64,000 nucleotides of DNA from a virus. The first letter of the stretch is position 1; the number at the start of each line of letters is the position of its first letter. The notes under the pieces are model-generated. The model was not told the DNA's origin. It worked only from the letters and a program-made list of their open reading frames with translations, and did not search any database. The position numbers and the translations under genes are program-made. The DNA lies in IMG/VR virus record IMGVR_UViG_3300045988_044066; one strand, written 5' to 3'. This document shows positions 912 through 58,734 of this stretch, one piece after another.

Positions 912-1383
912 GAGTATAAAATCTTCTACTAGCTTCCTCTTGCCTTGCTTGGCTAAAGTTACTAATACGTTTCAAATAACCAATAACTCTAGTAGCATAA
1001 TCAACGTTCTTACTCCCACATTTTGGACATTCCTTGAGATACCTTTTATCAATATGTCCACAATCATTACAAATAGTATTTGGAATATTAAATGTGAAAT
1101 AATTAGTACCATTGACTGCTGCCACTCTCAACAAGTTACGATACTGTTCCTTACTAAGATGTTCATCGAGATTCATATGCAATGCACTACCTCCGTCTAA
1201 GTATTGTACATATTCCTTGCCATGTAATTTGAACTTGTCAAGTACGGTAAGAGATGTGTCTTCAACAGCATAGAAATAGCTATTATAGCAATCTCTAGGA
1301 ACTACATAACCTGCTTTCCTGTCCCAATTAGCATGTTTAACCCCAAGGTTCTCTGCCCTTCTGTTACGCCTGCTCCCTAGCAT
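904..1383 (-). CDS. nrdD: Anaerobic ribonucleoside-triphosphate reductase NrdD, 3' exon (C-terminal zinc ribbon and glycyl-radical motif). Real exon start is probably <=1363.
   Basis: CNDCGH...CPKCGS zinc ribbon and TRVIGYL glycyl-radical motif. The ORF N-terminus overlaps the HNH ORF stop, so the exon boundary is not determined. Confidence 0.65.
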   Translation of the reverse strand: MLGSRRNRRAENLGVKHANWDRKAGYVVPRDCYNSYFYAVEDTSLTVLDKFKLHGKEYVQYLDGGSALHMNLDEHLSKEQYRNLLRVAAVNGTNYFTFNIPNTICNDCGHIDKRYLKECPKCGSKNVDYATRVIGYLKRISNFSQARQEEASRRFYTHA

Positions 1384-2095
1384 TGGAGCAGTGACCTAGT
1401 AAATGATATAAGTCCTTGTTGGGACCATAATCCCCACATAATTCGAGTTCTTTGGTAAGTCTAGCAATGATGGCGTCTTGTTCATTATCGTAGTTTCCCA
1501 AGTTGATGGTTTGGTAGTTGTGCATTATACGTGCTACCCATTTGCCATTCCTTAACTGGTTAACTCCAATTACTTTACCACCCTTACGTATGTTCTTCAT
1601 GTTATCCTTGTGCTCACACACTCTAAGATTCTCCAATCTATCGTCTAGTTTATCACCATTTATATGGTCAACTACACATTTGATTGAATACTCCCCTTCG
1701 TGTACTCCCATTAAGTATCTATGAAGTAATACCTTCTTACCATTTACGCTTATAGCAGCATACCAAGTATCTCCACCCTGTTTACGAATGTATACTTTAT
1801 ACTGTTTCAGCTCTTCTACCTTATCTAAATTCACTTTAACTCTTGCTGTCTCATTGCCTTCCTTATCATAAGTAATGCATTCAGCATAGTCATCATGTAA
1901 AATGTACTCATTAGGGTCATAGATTGTTCTTGTGGTAATCTTACCCTTATGATACATCTGCATATAGTGTTTCTTGCAGTAAGGTACTCCCTCGAATCTT
2001 GCGAATGCTTCAGCATCACAAGCTGTGCATTTAGTTTCTTTTAGTGAATTGCTTCTCTTCATGTTAGTGTTCCTTCTATTAAAGTTAATACACAA
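1364..2095 (-). CDS. HNH homing endonuclease inside the nrdD intervening sequence
   Basis: HRYLMG...VDHINGDKLDDRLENLRVCEHKDNMKN is an HNH_3-type motif. The ORF sits between the two nrdD halves. Confidence 0.7.
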   Translation of the reverse strand: MCINFNRRNTNMKRSNSLKETKCTACDAEAFARFEGVPYCKKHYMQMYHKGKITTRTIYDPNEYILHDDYAECITYDKEGNETARVKVNLDKVEELKQYKVYIRKQGGDTWYAAISVNGKKVLLHRYLMGVHEGEYSIKCVVDHINGDKLDDRLENLRVCEHKDNMKNIRKGGKVIGVNQLRNGKWVARIMHNYQTINLGNYDNEQDAIIARLTKELELCGDYGPNKDLYHLLGHCSNAREQA

Positions 2096-2224: not shown

Positions 2225-3931
2225 TCAGGCTGCCATTACGCTTGCCCCCTGTTGCCTACGATTCTCACGTAGTGGTTCCAAGTCAATTAGATTGGGTTTA
2301 ACGTGCCCACAAGTTTTAGGCACAAATTCTGTGTTAAACATTAACTCCTTAGTTCTCGCTTTACGATTTTCATCACTGATAGTTTTAAGGATAGATTGCA
2401 TAAACTCTCTATAAGTTGGATTATCATTAACTGGGATTCCTAAGAACTCCGCAGCCTCAATAACTCCATTAACACCTATAGTCAAATACTGCTTCTTCAT
2501 ATCAATGAATCCAGCTGTATATACAGTAAGCAACCCGTCTTTTAAATAGTCTTTAAGCAATTCATTATATGCTGTTTGGAACTTATGAACTTTCTTCACA
2601 TTCTCACGCAAATACTCAATCATATCATACCCATTATTAACTGCATCCTGAACTAACCTATTGATATTTAAGGTCATTACTGACTTACTACCAGTAGCAA
2701 TACCACCAGCTCCAAGAGAATAACTGAATTGATTATCAGTAACCTCATTACGAAGTCTGCAACAGGAAGATAAGGAATCAGGACTATCGGACATATAAGT
2801 AAAGAACGAGTGTCCTTTGCTATACATCTCTGCTGTAAAGTCTGCATACTCTTCATCAACAACATCCTCTCCGTTAGTCAGAAGCGCCATGGTCTCAACA
2901 GGGAATGTAAGAATACACTTAGTACGTTCCTCATTAAACCATTTAGCAAATTTCTTCTGCAACCAACTAAGAGATTCCCATTGAGGTTGTGTACCGTCTG
3001 GGAAATAGAACTCTCCAAAGATACCTTCAAAGTAGTTCTTATCAAAATAACTGATATTCCAGAATACTGATTGGAAGTTACGAGCAGCTGCTGGCTGATT
3101 GATTGAATATACAATCTGCTGGAACTTCTGCTCTAACGTCTTGTCAATATTTCTGTGTTTGTCAACCATTTCCTCTGGACGTTTCCAGTAATCATCACCC
3201 CACTCTTTACGAGCAAAGTAATCAAAGTACATTAGAAACTCTCCAGTTGCTACTGCACCTGCAAATTGAGAACTAATCGCAAATACCAGATTAACGAACA
3301 TGCCACAGAAAGAATCCAGGTTCTTGGGTCTGGCAGACAAACCTCCAATTGGCTGTAACCCCTCCAATAGAAAGGGATACATAGTGATAGCCACGCAGTA
3401 GGGCATAATCGATGTTTCATCATGCTTATAAAGTAAATGTTGTTCCAGCATACGGATATATTCCTTAGCTAGCTCCTCTCCATATAACTCTCTGATTTTA
3501 TCAGTAAGAATTGCACGATTTACCTTAATAACATCACCTTTGAACAATTCTCCATTTAAGGTTACAATGTTCTTCTCGGTAACATTAGCATTAGCATCGT
3601 ATTTACTACCAGTTGCGGCATTCTTGGCTTTAGCATAGTCTTTAATGAATTGTTTCTTTTCATTTAAAGCCCTGCTCTCTGCCCTTTTACGCCTGTACAA
3701 GATGAATGCCTTAGCAACATCATAATAATCACATGCCATAAGAGCTTTCTCTAACTGGTCTTGAAGCTCCTCAACTGAAACTATGTTGTTAATATACAAC
3801 TCATCTTTAATATCCTGAAGAATATCAGAATCAATTGGTTCGTTAACAGCGTTAAATGCCTTAGTAATTGCGGCATCAATCTTATTAACGTCGAAAGGTT
3901 CTACTTTTTTGTCTCTCTTAATTACTAACAT
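2225..3931 (-). CDS. nrdD: Anaerobic ribonucleoside-triphosphate reductase NrdD, 5' exon (ATP-cone plus catalytic barrel). The ORF 3' end runs into the intron.
   Basis: 568 aa starting MLVIKRDKKVEPFDVNKIDAAI (ATP-cone-like). The class III RNR C-terminus is supplied by ORF 904-1383. Confidence 0.75.
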   Translation of the reverse strand: MLVIKRDKKVEPFDVNKIDAAITKAFNAVNEPIDSDILQDIKDELYINNIVSVEELQDQLEKALMACDYYDVAKAFILYRRKRAESRALNEKKQFIKDYAKAKNAATGSKYDANANVTEKNIVTLNGELFKGDVIKVNRAILTDKIRELYGEELAKEYIRMLEQHLLYKHDETSIMPYCVAITMYPFLLEGLQPIGGLSARPKNLDSFCGMFVNLVFAISSQFAGAVATGEFLMYFDYFARKEWGDDYWKRPEEMVDKHRNIDKTLEQKFQQIVYSINQPAAARNFQSVFWNISYFDKNYFEGIFGEFYFPDGTQPQWESLSWLQKKFAKWFNEERTKCILTFPVETMALLTNGEDVVDEEYADFTAEMYSKGHSFFTYMSDSPDSLSSCCRLRNEVTDNQFSYSLGAGGIATGSKSVMTLNINRLVQDAVNNGYDMIEYLRENVKKVHKFQTAYNELLKDYLKDGLLTVYTAGFIDMKKQYLTIGVNGVIEAAEFLGIPVNDNPTYREFMQSILKTISDENRKARTKELMFNTEFVPKTCGHVKPNLIDLEPLRENRRQQGASVMAA

Positions 3932-31034: not shown

Positions 31035-31068
31035 CTTATAGGATTAGAATTACAGGGTTCAGGGTGAG

Positions 31069-31151
31069 CGGCTGTCGGGAATCGAACCCAATCTATCACT
31101 TGTGCGCATACTAAAATTAGTGATGTGCCCTCCTTTACACTACAACCGCAT
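31069..31151 (-). pseudogene. tRNA-like element with aberrant anticodon region (possible pseudo-tRNA or insertion-bearing tRNA)
   Basis: Acceptor GCGGTTG/CAGCCGC, D-arm GTGT..GCAC and T-arm TTGGG-TTCGATT-CCCGA all fold well. The anticodon stem ATCACT/AGTGAT encloses an 18-nt loop. Confidence 0.3.
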
Positions 31152-50479: not shown

Positions 50480-50515
50480 TATGGGTAGCCAGACTCGAAC
50501 TGGCGACAACTAGGT
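50480..50515 (-). tRNA. tRNA-Pro(TGG) 3' half (A38, anticodon stem 3' strand, variable loop, T-arm, acceptor 3' strand)
   Basis: A-CCTAG-TTGTC-GCCAG-TTCGAGT-CTGGC-TACCCAT-A. Pairs perfectly with the 5' half at 51319-51355. Confidence 0.6.
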
Positions 50516-51318
50516 CTAGGAACTAATGCTTTAGAGATTTGTCCAATCGTTAGAGTTAATAGATTTAATATCTGACATCCTAGTGGGAAGATTGTAACTT
50601 TTACACCATCTTCTAACCGCGTTATCTGATACACCAAAATCTTTACCGATTTGAACGAATGATTTTGTTCTAATTAATTCTTTCAGCTCCTCTTTCGAGG
50701 GCCATTCAGTCTTTCTAGAAGACAATCTATAACACTCTACACACATAATACCGTCCTTAGATACTGGATTGCGGTGACATTTAACACAGATGTGTTCTTT
50801 GTGTGCAATTGTGCTCTCTGTAATACTAGAACTACATTCCTCGGAACAGAAAGAAGTTTTGACCTTATGTCCGAGCATATTCTCTAATAGATAATCTTCT
50901 GCTTTATTGTAAACATTACTGCCATTGGTAGGAGGTTTAAGTCGTAGCGTCTTACTAGTTGAACATTCAGACACCGGAATTAAATATACCTTACCATCGT
51001 AAGCTGTTGCAAAATAATCTATTTGAGACTCATCATATCTCCTACGGACTGTTTCTTTAGTATTAGTAGTCTGCGTAACTGTACTAAAATGAAACGCATC
51101 TAAATCTCTAATTCCATTCTTAATAGGATTACTTGAAGACTTGCATTGAACTCTAAGAAGTTCATCACCCACATCTACTATTATGTCATATCTGGAGTTG
51201 TCTCCATAGGGAATTGAGCAATCAAATCCCATCGACATGAATCCTATAAGACAGGTTAATTCCGTAATATTACCTTTAGATTTTGTATAATCCATATGTT
51301 ATACTCTAAAGTTTAGTT
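50516..51318 (-). mobile_element. ~803-nt insertion (putative group I intron or homing-endonuclease insertion) in the anticodon loop of tRNA-Pro(TGG), between G37 and A38 (ambiguous by 1 nt)
   Basis: Joining the 5' and 3' halves gives a canonical 73-nt cloverleaf. The insertion RNA ends in ...GUUCCUAG (terminal G) and carries ORF 50531-51295 on the same strand. Confidence 0.5.
50531..51295 (-). CDS. endonuclease-like ORF inside the tRNA-Pro insertion (N-terminal PD-(D/E)xK-like motif, CxxC..CxxC zinc ribbon, C-terminal helix-turn-helix)
   Basis: RYDIIVDVGDELLRVQCK (D...E.K motif), HICVKCH...CVECY, and C-terminus ELKELIRTKSFVQIGKDFGVSDNAVRRWCKSY (HTH). Confidence 0.5.
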   Translation of the reverse strand: MDYTKSKGNITELTCLIGFMSMGFDCSIPYGDNSRYDIIVDVGDELLRVQCKSSSNPIKNGIRDLDAFHFSTVTQTTNTKETVRRRYDESQIDYFATAYDGKVYLIPVSECSTSKTLRLKPPTNGSNVYNKAEDYLLENMLGHKVKTSFCSEECSSSITESTIAHKEHICVKCHRNPVSKDGIMCVECYRLSSRKTEWPSKEELKELIRTKSFVQIGKDFGVSDNAVRRWCKSYNLPTRMSDIKSINSNDWTNL

Positions 51319-51355
51319 CCCAAACCTAGCATTCTACCTACTGAATTACACCCAT
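51319..51355 (-). tRNA. tRNA-Pro(TGG) 5' half (acceptor 5' strand, D-arm, anticodon stem 5' strand and loop TTTGGG)
   Basis: ATGGGTG-TA-ATTC-AGTAGGTA-GAAT-G-CTAGG-TTTGGG. Confidence 0.6.
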
Positions 51356-51701: not shown

Positions 51702-51704
51702 AAG

Positions 51705-51776
51705 TGCCCCATGTTGGACTCGAACCAACGCCATACAAGTTTAGAATTTGCTCTTCTACCACTGAAGTAATGGGGC
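51705..51776 (-). tRNA. amber-suppressor tRNA-Sup(CTA)
   Basis: 72-nt cloverleaf: GCCCCAT-TA-CTTC-AGTGGTA-GAAG-A-GCAAA-TTCTAAA-CTTGT-ATGGC-GTTGG-TTCGAGT-CCAAC-ATGGGGC-A. Anticodon 5'-CUA-3' reads UAG. Confidence 0.6.
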
Positions 51777-54094: not shown

Positions 54095-55789
54095 TTAGAC
54101 CTTCACAGGCTTCTTCTGCACGCTTGCATTCTTCTTGACAACATCCTTCTCTAGAATCATCATATTAAGCAACTCTTGATTCATAGCATGCTTAAAGATG
54201 TCTCTAGTGGTTTTAGGTACCTGGAACCTCTTCTCTCCAGTAATAAATGAGGATGTTGAATTATTAAGTCCATTTACTAAGAAGCAATTTGACACTCCTG
54301 GAACCAAAGCCACATTAGGTCTTCCCTTATATGCTAAAGGAACTCTCCAAATGATAACTTTGAATGCTCTTACAAATTCCTTACTGAAATTTGCTTTAAG
54401 CAGTCTTTGCTTAAATTCCACGAATGCTTGGTTGTTCAACTTGGTAAAATATGTATGGTTAGTAATTACCACACAACCTCTAGGGAACTCTCCTTCATCC
54501 ACACCATAATCTTCTTTCATTTTACACAGCATTTCTGCTATATTAATAATAGAAGGATTCTGGCATAATGCTTCTTCTTTGTCAGATTTCCATTTCTCAA
54601 TGACATTCTGACCTTTGAACTTACGTAGAACCATGTTATCTTCTAACACGGCATAGGAGTTTTTGAATATTGTAGGAAGTAATTCAGAATGATATAAAGC
54701 ATATGCTTTACCCAAACTGTAAGCAGATGTTTCGCTATTCTCTATCTCACCATTAGCAGAATGACTTATATCTCTTACTACCAACAACGGAGCTACTCTA
54801 TTGCGTTTAGCATTATCAACAAATACATTGAAACTTGCATTAATAGAAGTTTCCATAAATTCTGGAATCTCTTCGGCAATTTTATCCAATCCGTATGGTT
54901 TGAACAGAGTATGTAGAAATCCGCTATTAGAGGGCTTCTTACGGTTCTTCAACCAGTTCTGATACTTCTCTTTAAGACCTTGATGTTTGAGGAATTTAGA
55001 GCCTACTAGCTGTGCCAGTGCCTTTCCAGTAACAGTGTCAAAATCGATTTCCAAGAATTTCTTTTGACTGATTAACTGCTGCCATTGGGCTGCTTTCCCG
55101 CTATTCTTCATCTTCCTATATTTACGATAGGTTGAATAGTCTCCTTCATCCTTAGGTTTACCATAAAGGCCTTCCGCCAAGAATTTGGCTACTGTATTAC
55201 GTGCTTTTGCCTCATCTGTCTTACATGCAACACTGGAACGAACACGAGGAAGATACTTCTTTACTAAATCACATGTCTGACCGTTGGCAAGACCTGCGAA
55301 TATGACTTTCTTGAAGAAGTCCCAATCCAATCTGTGCTTAAAGCCATGGAGTTGAACATCTAAAGCCATCATAGTAATGAAATCTTTCCAGCATCCAGCT
55401 GCTGCAAAATAAGCAATGTTGGCATGGAATGTGGGTTTGTGATAGATTGCCAACCACAACATTCTCATTATACCTTCATTCTTCAAACCTTCTCCTTGCT
55501 GTGTATCAAGTTGTATAACTCCTTCCGGGGTAATTATTCTACATTTACGAGTTATCATTCTCGTATATGCAGTAAACTTAGTACATAGTAATGGATTAGC
55601 TTTCCATAAAGGATACATATCTTTAGCCACTTGCACGTAGGTACGTGGCTGAAGACATTTCTTAAGATTAACAAACTGGTCTATGAATAACTGATTATTA
55701 TCCACAAACTTAGGTTTATTCTCATCCCGCCTTTGACGTGCGGCATTAGGGTAAGGCCTCCTTGGCCTTTGTGCTCCTTTCATTTCCAT
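54095..55789 (-). CDS. large protein with C-terminal vWA-like domain (MIDAS-like DISHS) and N-terminal alpha-helical region; possible Ro60/TROVE (Rsr)-like RNA-binding protein
   Basis: LLVVRDISHSANGE contains a DxSxS MIDAS-like motif. GEGLKNEGIMRMLWLAIY resembles the Ro60 ...EPMLFALAIA segment. 564 aa, next to a tRNA island. Confidence 0.4.
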   Translation of the reverse strand: MEMKGAQRPRRPYPNAARQRRDENKPKFVDNNQLFIDQFVNLKKCLQPRTYVQVAKDMYPLWKANPLLCTKFTAYTRMITRKCRIITPEGVIQLDTQQGEGLKNEGIMRMLWLAIYHKPTFHANIAYFAAAGCWKDFITMMALDVQLHGFKHRLDWDFFKKVIFAGLANGQTCDLVKKYLPRVRSSVACKTDEAKARNTVAKFLAEGLYGKPKDEGDYSTYRKYRKMKNSGKAAQWQQLISQKKFLEIDFDTVTGKALAQLVGSKFLKHQGLKEKYQNWLKNRKKPSNSGFLHTLFKPYGLDKIAEEIPEFMETSINASFNVFVDNAKRNRVAPLLVVRDISHSANGEIENSETSAYSLGKAYALYHSELLPTIFKNSYAVLEDNMVLRKFKGQNVIEKWKSDKEEALCQNPSIINIAEMLCKMKEDYGVDEGEFPRGCVVITNHTYFTKLNNQAFVEFKQRLLKANFSKEFVRAFKVIIWRVPLAYKGRPNVALVPGVSNCFLVNGLNNSTSSFITGEKRFQVPKTTRDIFKHAMNQELLNMMILEKDVVKKNASVQKKPVKV

Positions 55790-56169
55790 CTCTTTGTTTA
55801 AATTTATTGTTATGAGAGTCTTTCTTTATTCTAAACAATAAACAAGCGGCATTACGGCAATCGGACATACGTTAACCCGCTCGCCACTTACAGACCGTAA
55901 TGCACACTTGACCAGGCAGGAAAGAGGTTTGCTTGGTGACCTATCTGCATGCTGATTATATAATGCAGACCGTGTAGATTCTCTCTTACACAATATCTAT
56001 AGTAGATTTGCACTACTGTTTTCTGATGCTTAATCAGGTGAACTCCTACTGTTCGAATAGATACAGGTTTCAACTCTTTGATATAGCCTTTAAGTCATAG
56101 ACATACTCCGGAATATGTCTACTGGTTCTTCAGACCAAGTTTTGCTACCACTATTCGTCAATAGTGGAT

Positions 56170-58034: not shown

Positions 58035-58587
58035 GTTAATAATAGTGGACCTAGGCGGAGTCGAACCGCCGTCCAAACAACCCTCATTAATAAGATTACG
58101 TGTGTCTCTATTTTATTACATCAGCTGTTGAGTTCAGCATGTAGGTAGTTTTACTAGTCTTATCTTGGAACCAGGTAATTAGGCTGCAATAGCCAAACCA
58201 GTACACCAAAAGCTAATTTACAAACTACCAAACTTAAAGGTTCAGAAGCTGACGCTTCCAAACCTGGGCTGACCGAAGTCGCTCTTCCACCACTCCATTT
58301 ACGTTGGAGAACGTTTCTATTTGTAACCCATAGATAGGTAGTGGAGATTTCAGCTTTACTAACCTTTGGCTTTCAAGTTAAGTGGGCTGCTCTATACGCT
58401 TCTTCCCACACCTCTTCTGTTTCTAGGTCTCTCCAATTAACCCGACTTAGAGCTAAATTAATAGATAAGCCAGCAGCTTAGGCTGCCATTCTTACTTCAG
58501 TGTTTCCACTTAAATTGCTGTATCATTATTAAAGAGTTGGTACGAACTCTACACGTCTTACTAACTTGTAATCGCCTGTCAAAACCA
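58035..58587 (-). ncRNA. ssrA: tmRNA (ssrA-like); unusually long at ~553 nt; predicted tag ...GNTEVRMAA*
   Basis: 5' end GGGCCUAGAUUUGGUUUUGACAGGCG resembles the consensus GGGGCUGAUUCUGGAUUCGACGGG. 3' end ...UUUGGAC-GGCGG-UUCGACU-CCGCC-UAGGUCC-A. Acceptor GGGCCUA/UAGGUCC. In-frame AUG-GCA-GCC-UAA ends ~120 nt from the 5' end. Confidence 0.55.
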
Positions 58588-58734
58588 AATCTAGGCCCAT
58601 AGAACGGCATGATTATCCTCTCATGCCAGGAGGTCTCTCAAACCTGAACAAAAAAGCTATCAGTATCTTCCTGTGCTACATTGAGTAGCGTACCCATTAC
58701 AGACTTAATAGCCTAGGAGTTATTTTTATTCCAT

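Follow-up and report, generated by a model that had tools for sequence, protein, structure and literature searches.

A phage tRNA-Pro gene split by an endonuclease-encoding insertion whose ends extend the anticodon stem and pair with the anticodon

This report concerns an interrupted tRNA gene in the IMG/VR virus record IMGVR_UViG_3300045988_044066, of which a stretch of 64,000 nucleotides (nt) was analysed; this whole stretch is referred to below as the window. On its minus strand, a tRNA-Pro gene with the anticodon TGG is split in the anticodon loop by an 803-nt insertion, which consists of a single open reading frame (ORF) with 23 nt of non-coding sequence upstream and 15 nt downstream (Table 1). 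When the two halves (51355-51319 and 50515-50480) are joined, ARAGORN recognizes a canonical 73-nt tRNA-Pro(tgg), and in intron mode the same program finds this tRNA-Pro(tgg) with an 803-nt intron in the raw region; without intron mode, it calls no tRNA-Pro in the window. The joined gene has the cloverleaf of a bacterial-type tRNA-Pro with a UGG anticodon, including a 7-nt anticodon loop once the insertion is removed. A sequence-only reading of this DNA had proposed that a tRNA-Pro(TGG) gene is halved in its anticodon loop by about 0.8 kb of inserted sequence, and both ARAGORN runs agree with it. The interrupted gene is the sole tRNA-Pro among the ~30 tRNA genes of the window. The phage is distant kin of Bacillus phages of the Herelleviridae type, and a megablast search with the region against 50,697 phage records returned no match.

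The two halves belong to one gene and are not unrelated fragments, as is demonstrated by three close relatives in IMG/VR (L251-L253; such L-numbers are labels of fetched loci). Each of these phages carries an uninterrupted tRNA-Pro that is identical to the joined halves and lies in the same setting as in the window, between tRNA-Ile and tRNA-Cys, with flanks that are 89-99.5% identical. Among close relatives the insertion is thus polymorphic, present in some and absent from others; the sequence-only reading had named a comparison with related phages lacking it as a check.

The product of the ORF matches the Pfam family PDDEXK_5 (PF11645) with E=1.5e-20 and 74 bits (cutoff 26), and the homing endonuclease I-Ssp6803I (PDB 2OST) with E=2.8e-7 as a single sequence and E=2.6e-11 as a family profile. 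Its YD..D...QxK core is unvarying across 32 homologues, and it has a zinc ribbon with four invariant cysteines (CxxC...CxxC). The C-terminal helix-turn-helix (HTH) was recognized through weak matches and is common to the DNA-binding tails of phage HNH endonucleases. These matches and motifs bear out the earlier description of the product as a PD-(D/E)xK, zinc-ribbon and HTH endonuclease related to I-Ssp6803I. Homologues of the ORF number 276 at E<=1e-3. The exact window protein is present in 195 blocks of a public assembly collection; the contigs shown with it reach ~180 kb, and at least one of them comes from a human-gut metagenome.

To place the insertion among its relatives, loci were gathered from IMG/VR, metagenomes and GTDB genomes by ORF homology, and their tRNA halves were positioned by canonical cloverleaf numbering alone, with the intron sequence ignored. 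In the homologue loci fetched first (59-76% protein identity), the ORF was inside a tRNA-Pro in all cases, with exon sequences unlike those of the window. Altogether, 90 ORFs were placed within cloverleaf tRNAs, which represent at least 10 identities, and the insertion follows nt 36 every time. The hosts include tRNA-Pro(UGG) with 31 ORFs, tRNA-Thr(UGU) with 26, tRNA-Val(UAC) with 9-10, tRNA-Gly(UCC) with five and tRNA-Asn(GUU) with three; further hosts are tRNA-Lys(UUU), tRNA-Ser(GCU), tRNA-Gln(UUG), a tRNA with the anticodon AGU and a CUA suppressor. The ORFs come in two formats, one of ~250 amino acids (aa) with nuclease, zinc ribbon and HTH in introns of 775-850 nt, and one of ~140 aa with the nuclease alone in introns of 450-490 nt. 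Both formats fill the insertion, with leaders down to 3 nt and as little as 3+11 nt of non-coding sequence. A cultured case is found in Enterococcus phage EFP01 (Herelleviridae; KY549443.1), where a tRNA-Asn(GUU) at about 105242-105777, which GenBank leaves unannotated, contains a 463-nt insertion encoding EFP01_109 (PDDEXK_5). By these sequence features, the insertion in the window is a member of a large and widespread family of phage tRNA insertions, none of which we found described; a full-text search of the literature returned no description of this insertion architecture.

The exact junction cannot be placed from the window sequence alone, as a GA repeat is present at both junctions, and it was assigned from family-wide evidence, for which the statistics here and below refer to 56 distinct sequences. 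Nucleotides 32-36 come from the 5' side in every family member. The first intron nucleotide is a pyrimidine in 39 of the 56 sequences, whereas the 3' strand of the anticodon stem is invariably preceded by a purine and then any base (GA for Pro, AA for most others), so that nt 37 read from the 3' side is a purine without exception (G for Pro, A for the others). Because the bases that continue the 5' side are often pyrimidines, and hence not nt 37, while nt 37 on the 3' side is always a purine, we place the junction at 36/37 rather than 37/38. The intron then runs from 51319 to 50517 and ends in A, not G. The sequence-only reading had argued from a terminal G, an argument that falls away with its junction being 1 nt off. 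The expected spliced junction is ...CUAGGUUUGG joined to GACCUAG... in the tRNA-Pro of the window and ...ACUGGCUGUU joined to AACCAGU... in the tRNA-Asn of EFP01.

The ends of the insertion lengthen the anticodon stem into a continuous helix of ~25 base pairs (bp), with the ORF in the loop. In order, this helix comprises the anticodon stem (5 bp), the pairs 32:38 and 33:37, a duplex between the anticodon and the last three intron nucleotides (here termed the anti-anticodon), an intron helix of ~7 bp, an irregularity, and a further 5-8 bp (8 in the window), in which the stop codon of the ORF is included. The pairs 33:37 and i1:d form in 56 of 56 sequences and 32:38 in half of the members. The three anticodon:anti-anticodon pairs form in 54, 56 and 55 of the 56, across 10 different anticodons. 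Correspondingly, the last three intron nucleotides are CUA or CUG in the Pro class, AUA or ACA in Thr, GUA in Val, GGN in Gly, AGC in Asn, AAA in Lys, CAG in Gln and UAG in the CUA suppressor. The irregularity belongs to a motif, 5'-YAAAY / RCATTR-3', which in the window places A50527 opposite A51312 (an A.A mismatch) and leaves C50528 bulged. At the RNA level, YAAAY/RCAUUR is found in the Pro, Thr, Val and Gly classes, and other non-canonical loops take its place in Asn, Lys and the short-ORF members of Pro.

Several lines of evidence support this pairing. Paired cells in the 56-sequence alignment amount to 89.2%, versus 59.8% in column shuffles (none of 500 shuffles reached the observed value), and they fall to 32-47% when the partner is slid. 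Changes on both sides are seen at 21 of the 23 helix pairs; in the upper intron helix, for example, L006 has the compensatory change CTTGATT/AATCAAG. G.U combinations occur 115 times in helix pairs and A.C combinations 17 times, which indicates that the helix is selected on the transcribed strand and read at the RNA level. This imbalance also argues against DNA-level readings of the paired ends, as inverted repeats of a transposon or as a cruciform cut by a resolvase-like enzyme. The full 876-nt precursor folds into a cloverleaf with an extended arm in both the minimum-free-energy (MFE) and centroid structures (z=-6.9); folded alone, the extended arm has z=-8.8 and shows the long double-stranded RNA (dsRNA) stem typical of intervening sequences excised by RNase III. 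Free-standing homologues, which lack the terminal helix, reach -7 to -13 kcal/mol, versus a mean of -28 kcal/mol for the intronic copies.

The junctions occupy a defined place in this helix. Each is found at one of the 3' ends of the 3-bp duplex between anticodon and anti-anticodon, which results in a 3' stagger of 3 nt, and the duplex is flanked by ~7 bp of tRNA helix (27-33/37-43) on one side and ~7 bp of intron helix on the other, an arrangement with pseudo-two-fold symmetry. The register between junction and tRNA body is fixed, and the distance from the junction to the internal motif shifts by 1 bp in the Gly class. This suggests that the cut position would be measured from the tRNA side.

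Table 1. Positions in the window of the split tRNA-Pro gene, the insertion and the paired elements at its ends
Feature	Coordinates	Strand	Basis
5' exon of tRNA-Pro(UGG), nt 1-36	51320-51355	-	ARAGORN, joined and raw; canonical numbering; family-wide 36/37 junction
Anticodon stem, 5' strand CTAGG	51329-51325	-	Within 5' exon
Anticodon TGG	51322-51320	-	Within 5' exon
Intervening sequence, 803 nt, GAACTAAAC...GTTCCTA	50517-51319	-	Intronless alleles; ARAGORN intron mode; family junction rules
Lower intron helix, 5' strand GAACTAA, pairing with 50526-50520 (TTAGTTC)	51313-51319	-	Sequence; covariation; MFE and centroid folds
Upper intron helix, 5' strand CTTTAGAG, pairing with 50536-50529	51304-51311	-	Sequence; compensatory changes in relatives
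ORF, 254 aa, I-Ssp6803I-type PD-(D/E)xK homing endonuclease (PDDEXK_5) with zinc ribbon and C-terminal HTH	50531-51295	-	Pfam and 2OST matches
Stop codon TAA of the ORF	50533-50531	-	
Upper intron helix, 3' strand CTCTAAAG, overlapping the end of the ORF (last sense codon and stop)	50529-50536	-	Sequence; covariation; fold
Lower intron helix, 3' strand (50526-50520), with the conserved irregularity	50520-50528	-	Motif kept in Pro, Thr, Val and Gly classes
Anti-anticodon CTA, last 3 nt of the insertion, pairing with G36, G35 and U34	50517-50519	-	Family pairing, 10 anticodons
3' exon of tRNA-Pro, nt 37-73, beginning G37 A38	50480-50516	-	ARAGORN; intronless alleles
Anticodon stem, 3' strand CCTAG	50514-50510	-	Within 3' exon, after G37 A38

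Intact intronic copies are common, and the element also exists in free-standing and degenerate forms. Free-standing homologues are located 40 nt downstream of an intact tRNA-Pro in L014, L022 and L051 and 11 nt upstream of one in L016. In L170, a phage 99.4% identical to the window, a 352-nt deletion shifts the frame of the ORF and leaves an insertion of 451 nt, with the ends, the anti-anticodon and the exons untouched. L200 retains a 104-nt remnant (precursor L200 63-242) in which the ORF is reduced to 9 codons (ATGGAT...TGA); YAAAY/RCATTR and the anti-anticodon are still present, and the tRNA-Pro is perfect. Taken together, the free-standing, intact and degenerate copies read as the classical cycle of a homing endonuclease, and the degenerate copies with kept ends and exons imply that the RNA "wrapper" persists after gene loss and so outlives the endonuclease gene. 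Two pattern scans of IMG/VR for further mini-introns without an ORF gave chance matches in protein genes and nothing else, and no circularised intron junction was found in IMG/VR. A distant PDDEXK_5-like ORF (28% identity) is free-standing in Pectobacterium phage My1 (JX195166.1 30085-30486; L265 1195-1596), where it ends 7 nt inside the annotated start of a tRNA-Ile in a T5-like tRNA cluster.

We infer that the insertion is removed from the tRNA precursor because the anti-anticodon is re-tailored to each host tRNA, because the helix is present in the intronic context alone, because copies with a dead ORF keep exact ends and exons, and because the interrupted gene is the sole tRNA-Pro in a near-complete phage tRNA set. 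That some removal at the RNA level restores the tRNA is accordingly what we consider probable. Alternatively, the element could be a selfish insertion that is never spliced, as the sequence-only reading had also entertained; the tRNA-Pro would then be inactivated, the phage would use the tRNA-Pro of its host, and the helix would serve the element itself, for instance by influencing how the endonuclease mRNA is processed, stabilised or translated. In its favour, phages can do without their tRNAs, alleles lacking the intron are in circulation, the mixture of free-standing, intact and degenerate copies is typical of a homing endonuclease, and no splicing machinery was found among the scanned ORFs of the window and EFP01. 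However, a parasite acting at the DNA level gains nothing by fitting the last three intron nucleotides to the host anticodon in 10 tRNA identities, and its free-standing homologues neither need nor have the helix, which in the intronic copies runs on from the anticodon stem up to the exact junctions. The perfect exons of the ORF-dead copies and the lack of a second tRNA-Pro in the set also speak against it. With the anticodon-matched RNA helix making an inactivated tRNA less likely, we regard this alternative as unlikely, though still one to be taken seriously.

If the insertion is spliced, one candidate, and the leading idea of the sequence-only reading, is a group I intron with a core that is compact or overlaps the ORF. 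Some group I introns, in bacterial tRNA-fMet and tRNA-Arg(UCU), do encode endonucleases of the I-Ssp6803I type (PMC13011429), and group I introns are found in tRNAs of related phages (L017 401-805, 41 bits). The covariance-model search that the sequence-only reading had proposed gave no match to RF00028 in the window even at E<=10; likewise, nine related introns had none at E<=0.1, and permissive Rfam scans of the window region and 11 loci yielded no group I match in any PDDEXK_5 intron, although the same scan detected the group I intron elsewhere in L017. RF00028 is insensitive, as two apparent group I introns in tRNA-Leu(UAA), one in L019 and one in L036, escaped it, so that the negative result is weak when taken alone. 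The rejection nevertheless stands because four other points are independent of this model. First, there is no space for a catalytic core: 38 non-coding nt are available here and 3+11 nt in relatives, and a 104-nt derivative exists, in line with the doubt voiced in the sequence-only reading that the ORF leaves no room for P3-P9. Second, no junction base is conserved: nt 36 is T in 24, G in 19, C in 12 and A in one of the 56 members (G in the window), with no conserved U, and the last intron nucleotide is A in 30, G in 19, C in four and T in three (A in the window), with no conserved G. Third, the pairing partner of the 5' exon end is the intron's 3' end together with nt 37-38, and not a 5' internal guide sequence. 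Fourth, no RNA core appears to be hidden in the ORF, where windows of 12 codons have a codon identity, at identical residues, of 0.43-0.78 (mean 0.59) and no block stands out as conserved, i.e. no synonymous constraint. Judged by these features, the group I interpretation is wrong, and we hold such an intron to be extremely unlikely. The phrase "unusual compact self-splicing element" from the sequence-only reading remains the closest description in so far as the element is compact and unusual, and no evidence of self-splicing was seen.

Probable classical group I introns were encountered in phage tRNAs at L019 201-512, L036 1223-1659 and L017 401-805. The first two are the tRNA-Leu(UAA) introns named above; they are inserted at 34/35, have AGACUACA-type cores and were missed by RF00028 at E<=0.1, while the L017 intron was detected below the gathering score.

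Other known structures were also considered and rejected. The insertion begins with GAACU and not GUGYG, has no Rfam group II match and encodes a nuclease, not a reverse transcriptase, and these features, together with its size, exclude a group II intron. A bulge-helix-bulge (BHB) is contradicted by a helix that is unbroken through both junctions (33:37, 34-36 and i1:d paired in 54-56 of 56 sequences); a check by hand on the window found nt 32-35 unpaired with intron nt -3 to -6, and the junction is at 36/37. A target-site duplication would give a direct repeat rather than an inverted complement, and CTA does not match TGG as an exact complement. A reading of the stem as an acceptor/T minihelix for RNase P or RNase Z does not fit a tail that is not RCCA-like and a 3' cut lying 3 nt, not 1 nt, past the helix.

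The catalyst could instead be a new small ribozyme, built from the terminal helix and its internal loop, or a phage RNA acting in trans. The former would be suited by the conserved motif YAAAY/RCATTR, whose A.A mismatch and bulged C make it non-Watson-Crick and which lies 7 bp from the junction, and the latter by large RNAs of unknown function in the tRNA regions, namely RAGATH-34 in the window and ROOL and RAGATH-33 in relatives. On the other hand, the internal motif varies by subfamily (Asn, Lys and short-ORF Pro differ), the nucleotides at the junctions are unconserved, and Rfam scans of the window and related loci matched no known self-cleaving motif. We therefore think a ribozyme of this sort highly improbable.

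With no ribozyme in evidence, removal by a protein endonuclease followed by an RNA ligase is the most economical scenario. At the DNA level, the encoded PD-(D/E)xK enzyme would attack relatives that co-infect the cell, cutting their uninterrupted tRNA-Pro genes in the anticodon region, and repair would then copy the element into the cut gene; such homing is suggested by the homology to I-Ssp6803I and by the presence/absence polymorphism. At the RNA level, the insertion ends and the anticodon stem-loop would form one uninterrupted helix with the ORF in its loop, a protein endonuclease would cut both strands of the precursor helix at the junctions, and an RNA ligase of the host or phage would reseal the anticodon loop to give a working tRNA-Pro. 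Candidates for the endonuclease are an RNase of the host or phage and the enzyme that the intron encodes. The predicted scissile bonds face each other across the minor groove, which would suit a dimeric enzyme in the way that the BHB suits EndA. On present evidence, we judge the chances to be slightly better than even that the insertion is removed from the pre-tRNA in this manner, by protein endonuclease and ligase and not by a ribozyme.

In addition to the insensitivity of RF00028, three points weigh against this scenario. RNase III cuts with a 2-nt stagger, and we know of no bacterial or phage endonuclease that cuts dsRNA with a 3-nt 3' stagger. No RNA ligase gene was found by Pfam among 30 ORFs of the window (10 of them also searched with PHROGs), which represents 64 kb of a ~180-kb genome, or among selected ORFs of EFP01. 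Finally, the intact exons may reflect recent homing and not selection on the spliced tRNA.

Excision without religation needs no ligase. Bacterial rRNA intervening sequences that are bounded by a helix, some of them with ORFs, are an established precedent for RNase III-type excision, and RNase III could plausibly act on a continuous helix of ~25 bp that is irregular at one internal point; the product would be a nicked or destroyed tRNA. Decoding is not expected of a tRNA whose anticodon loop is nicked, though, and the junctions that restore the 7-nt loop are staggered by 3 nt and not by 2 nt. Moreover, a helix serving as a substrate would need no exact match to the anticodon. Simple excision of this kind is in our view very unlikely.

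In a sub-case of the endonuclease-and-ligase scenario, the splicing endonuclease would be the PD-(D/E)xK enzyme that the intron encodes, the RNA helix copying the geometry of the DNA target and a dimer cutting both RNA strands beside the anticodon triplet. I-Ssp6803I reportedly cuts DNA on each strand beside the anticodon triplet, leaving 3-nt 3' extensions. In the present family, the junctions match this pattern, lying 3' of the anticodon and 3' of its complement with the 3-nt 3' stagger, the RNA helix and the DNA target agree in the sequence of their left halves, and the junctions are fixed relative to the tRNA body while the internal motif shifts by 1 bp in the Gly class. Furthermore, the architecture was found with PDDEXK_5 ORFs alone, among loci gathered by ORF homology, a form of sampling that biases toward an exclusive association. 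Against this, ORF-dead introns persist with intact exons, which would require the enzyme in trans; most members show no likeness between the intron half of the helix and the DNA target's right half; and RNA cleavage has never been reported for this endonuclease family. The narrower idea that the intron helix mimics the right half of the DNA target was discarded, as the first 2 nt alone match, and do so in some Pro members. An enzyme that doubles as the splicing endonuclease is an attractive candidate but a tentative and rather unlikely proposal. We put forward with the same reserve, as a speculative model, protein-only tRNA splicing in phages, in which a single PD-(D/E)xK enzyme would cut the intronless gene on either side of the anticodon to spread and cut a mimic RNA helix in its own precursor to excise, with RtcB or Rnl of host or phage resealing the tRNA. 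If true, such a dual-role enzyme would be a bacterial counterpart of archaeal splicing by EndA and RtcB and would provide a natural substrate for bacterial RNA-repair ligases.

Introns of bacteria and phages are regarded as ribozymes of group I or II, and protein-spliced tRNA introns as a trait of archaea and eukaryotes. If the insertions described here are spliced, they would constitute a new intron class, point to an unrecognised activity that cuts and ligates RNA in bacteria or phages, suggest a possible physiological role for bacterial RNA ligases, and illustrate a route from a free-standing homing endonuclease to an "intron" without a ribozyme. The family follows simple sequence rules that are testable. 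It should also be noted that tRNA finders in bacterial mode miss such genes, as for the tRNA-Pro of the window and the tRNA-Asn of EFP01, or misname them; for instance, ARAGORN gives the split tRNAs of the Thr class as Asp or Tyr.

The surroundings of the split gene contain further unusual features. A tRNA with the anticodon CTA (window 51704-51776, minus strand), an amber suppressor that ARAGORN labels "Pyl", lies near the split gene, and the homologous endonuclease ORFs of L014, L015, L020, L022 and L051 contain in-frame TAG codons; this combination suggests TAG-recoded phages. At 58043-58598 (minus strand), Rfam matches a tmRNA (83.7 bits) over 556 nt against a model of 374 positions and ARAGORN makes no tmRNA call, so the gene may carry an insertion or be of an unusual form. 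A RAGATH-34 RNA (56060-56167, minus strand; 120.9 bits) is situated ~270 nt upstream of a 564-aa ORF (54095-55789, minus strand) that matches phrog_850, "RNA-binding protein". Relatives have in the same place a DUF2828/DUF7788 protein and weak matches to YrlA (Y RNA-like), and a Ro/Y-RNA-like module inside the tRNA array is possible. ROOL, RAGATH-33 and skipping-rope RNAs occur within or beside the tRNA arrays of relatives (L019 1-192; L036 1673-1801; L042 177-246). A weak match to an HDV-like ribozyme (L017 3306-3362; 31 bits, E=0.059) begins at the last base of an intron-containing tRNA-Pro and recalls the theta ribozymes reported beside phage tRNAs.

Elsewhere in the window, a tRNA-Thr(TGT) of 84 nt has a class II-like long variable arm (41511-41594, minus strand), a doubtful tRNA-Val(CAC) with a 13-nt insertion is called in the intron mode of ARAGORN (31066-31149, minus strand), and at 43715-43818 a plus-strand tRNA-Arg(TCG) overlaps a minus-strand tRNA-Ser(GCT). 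An HNH_3 endonuclease ORF (1364-2095, minus strand) lies immediately downstream of nrdD (2225-3931, minus strand), which encodes the anaerobic ribonucleotide reductase, and probably represents another homing endonuclease. In EFP01 (NC_047796.1; L266/L267), the genes for the terminase large subunit and DNA polymerase are annotated in pieces parted by HNH endonuclease genes; this genome, whose tRNAs are unannotated, is rich in introns or inteins.

Comparison with known systems shows likenesses to several and identity with none. A 2014 review placed every phage intron then known in a protein gene (PMC3984707), and a 2026 survey of bacterial tRNA introns lists group I, a few group II and nothing else (PMC13011429). 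According to that survey, PF11645 endonucleases occur in group I introns of tRNA-fMet (at 33/34) and tRNA-Arg(UCU). The Synechocystis tRNA-fMet intron with I-Ssp6803I is alike in belonging to the same Pfam family, in its site in the anticodon loop and presumably in the logic of homing on anticodon stem-loop DNA. In these group I introns, ~200 nt form a catalytic core and the preceding base is a U (PMC13011429); in contrast, the present family has no core, is inserted at 36/37 whatever the base, and pairs its last nucleotides with the anticodon. Free-standing homing endonucleases of tRNA clusters, such as T4 SegB and those of T5-like phages, likewise target phage tRNA genes and ride beside them, and 80 PDDEXK_5 genes are listed as stand-alone endonucleases in work on Jug phages (PMC12880540). 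The window gene differs from SegB-type systems in lying inside the tRNA, wrapped in an RNA helix that free-standing copies lack.

The "enigmatic" tRNA introns of Lak megaphages also interrupt anticodon loops, of tRNA-Thr, -Gly, -Phe and -Tyr, and fit no Rfam class; the authors of that preprint knew of no earlier report of phage tRNA introns and left theirs unassigned (10.1101/356790). No PDDEXK_5 gene or terminal-helix architecture is described for them (10.1101/356790). Similar short insertions of 57-71 nt without an ORF were seen in anticodon loops at L019 1487-1625, L019 4010-4155 and L011 321-452; they hold a T-arm-like hairpin, the L019 ones being scored as tRNA by Rfam (39.5 and 41.2 bits), and they break the 36/37 and anti-anticodon rule. 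The Lak introns differ from the present family in being short, without an ORF and tRNA-like in fold and, judged from the similar L019 1487-1625, in not following this rule.

Among helix-bounded elements, SOS splicing of DNA transposons from animal mRNAs is alike in that pairing of inverted terminal repeats triggers excision, apparently independently of the spliceosome, and the paper treats the ligase RTCB at length (106 mentions) (PMC12779559). It differs in being eukaryotic and imprecise and in acting on mRNA, and it has no connection with tRNA structure or with this family of endonucleases. Bacterial 23S and 16S rRNA intervening sequences share the bounding helix, the location in a structural RNA, sometimes an ORF, and removal by a protein nuclease. 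Their rRNA fragments function unligated and their ends are cut with a 2-nt stagger, whereas a tRNA anticodon loop needs resealing and the junctions here are staggered by 3 nt. The BHB introns of archaea and eukaryotes have 3-nt bulges, a 4-bp central helix and a 37/38 junction; the present family has neither bulges nor such a central helix, its junction is at 36/37, and its hosts are bacteria and their phages, which are without EndA (a tmRNA is present in the window, and EFP01 is an Enterococcus phage). Nevertheless, both lack a ribozyme, and in both the intron ends are paired, the anticodon pairs with the intron, and the junctions are 3'-staggered and pseudo-symmetric; as in archaeal BHB introns, an ORF (in some of those a homing endonuclease) lies in the loop and the pathway is likely to be one of cutting and ligation.

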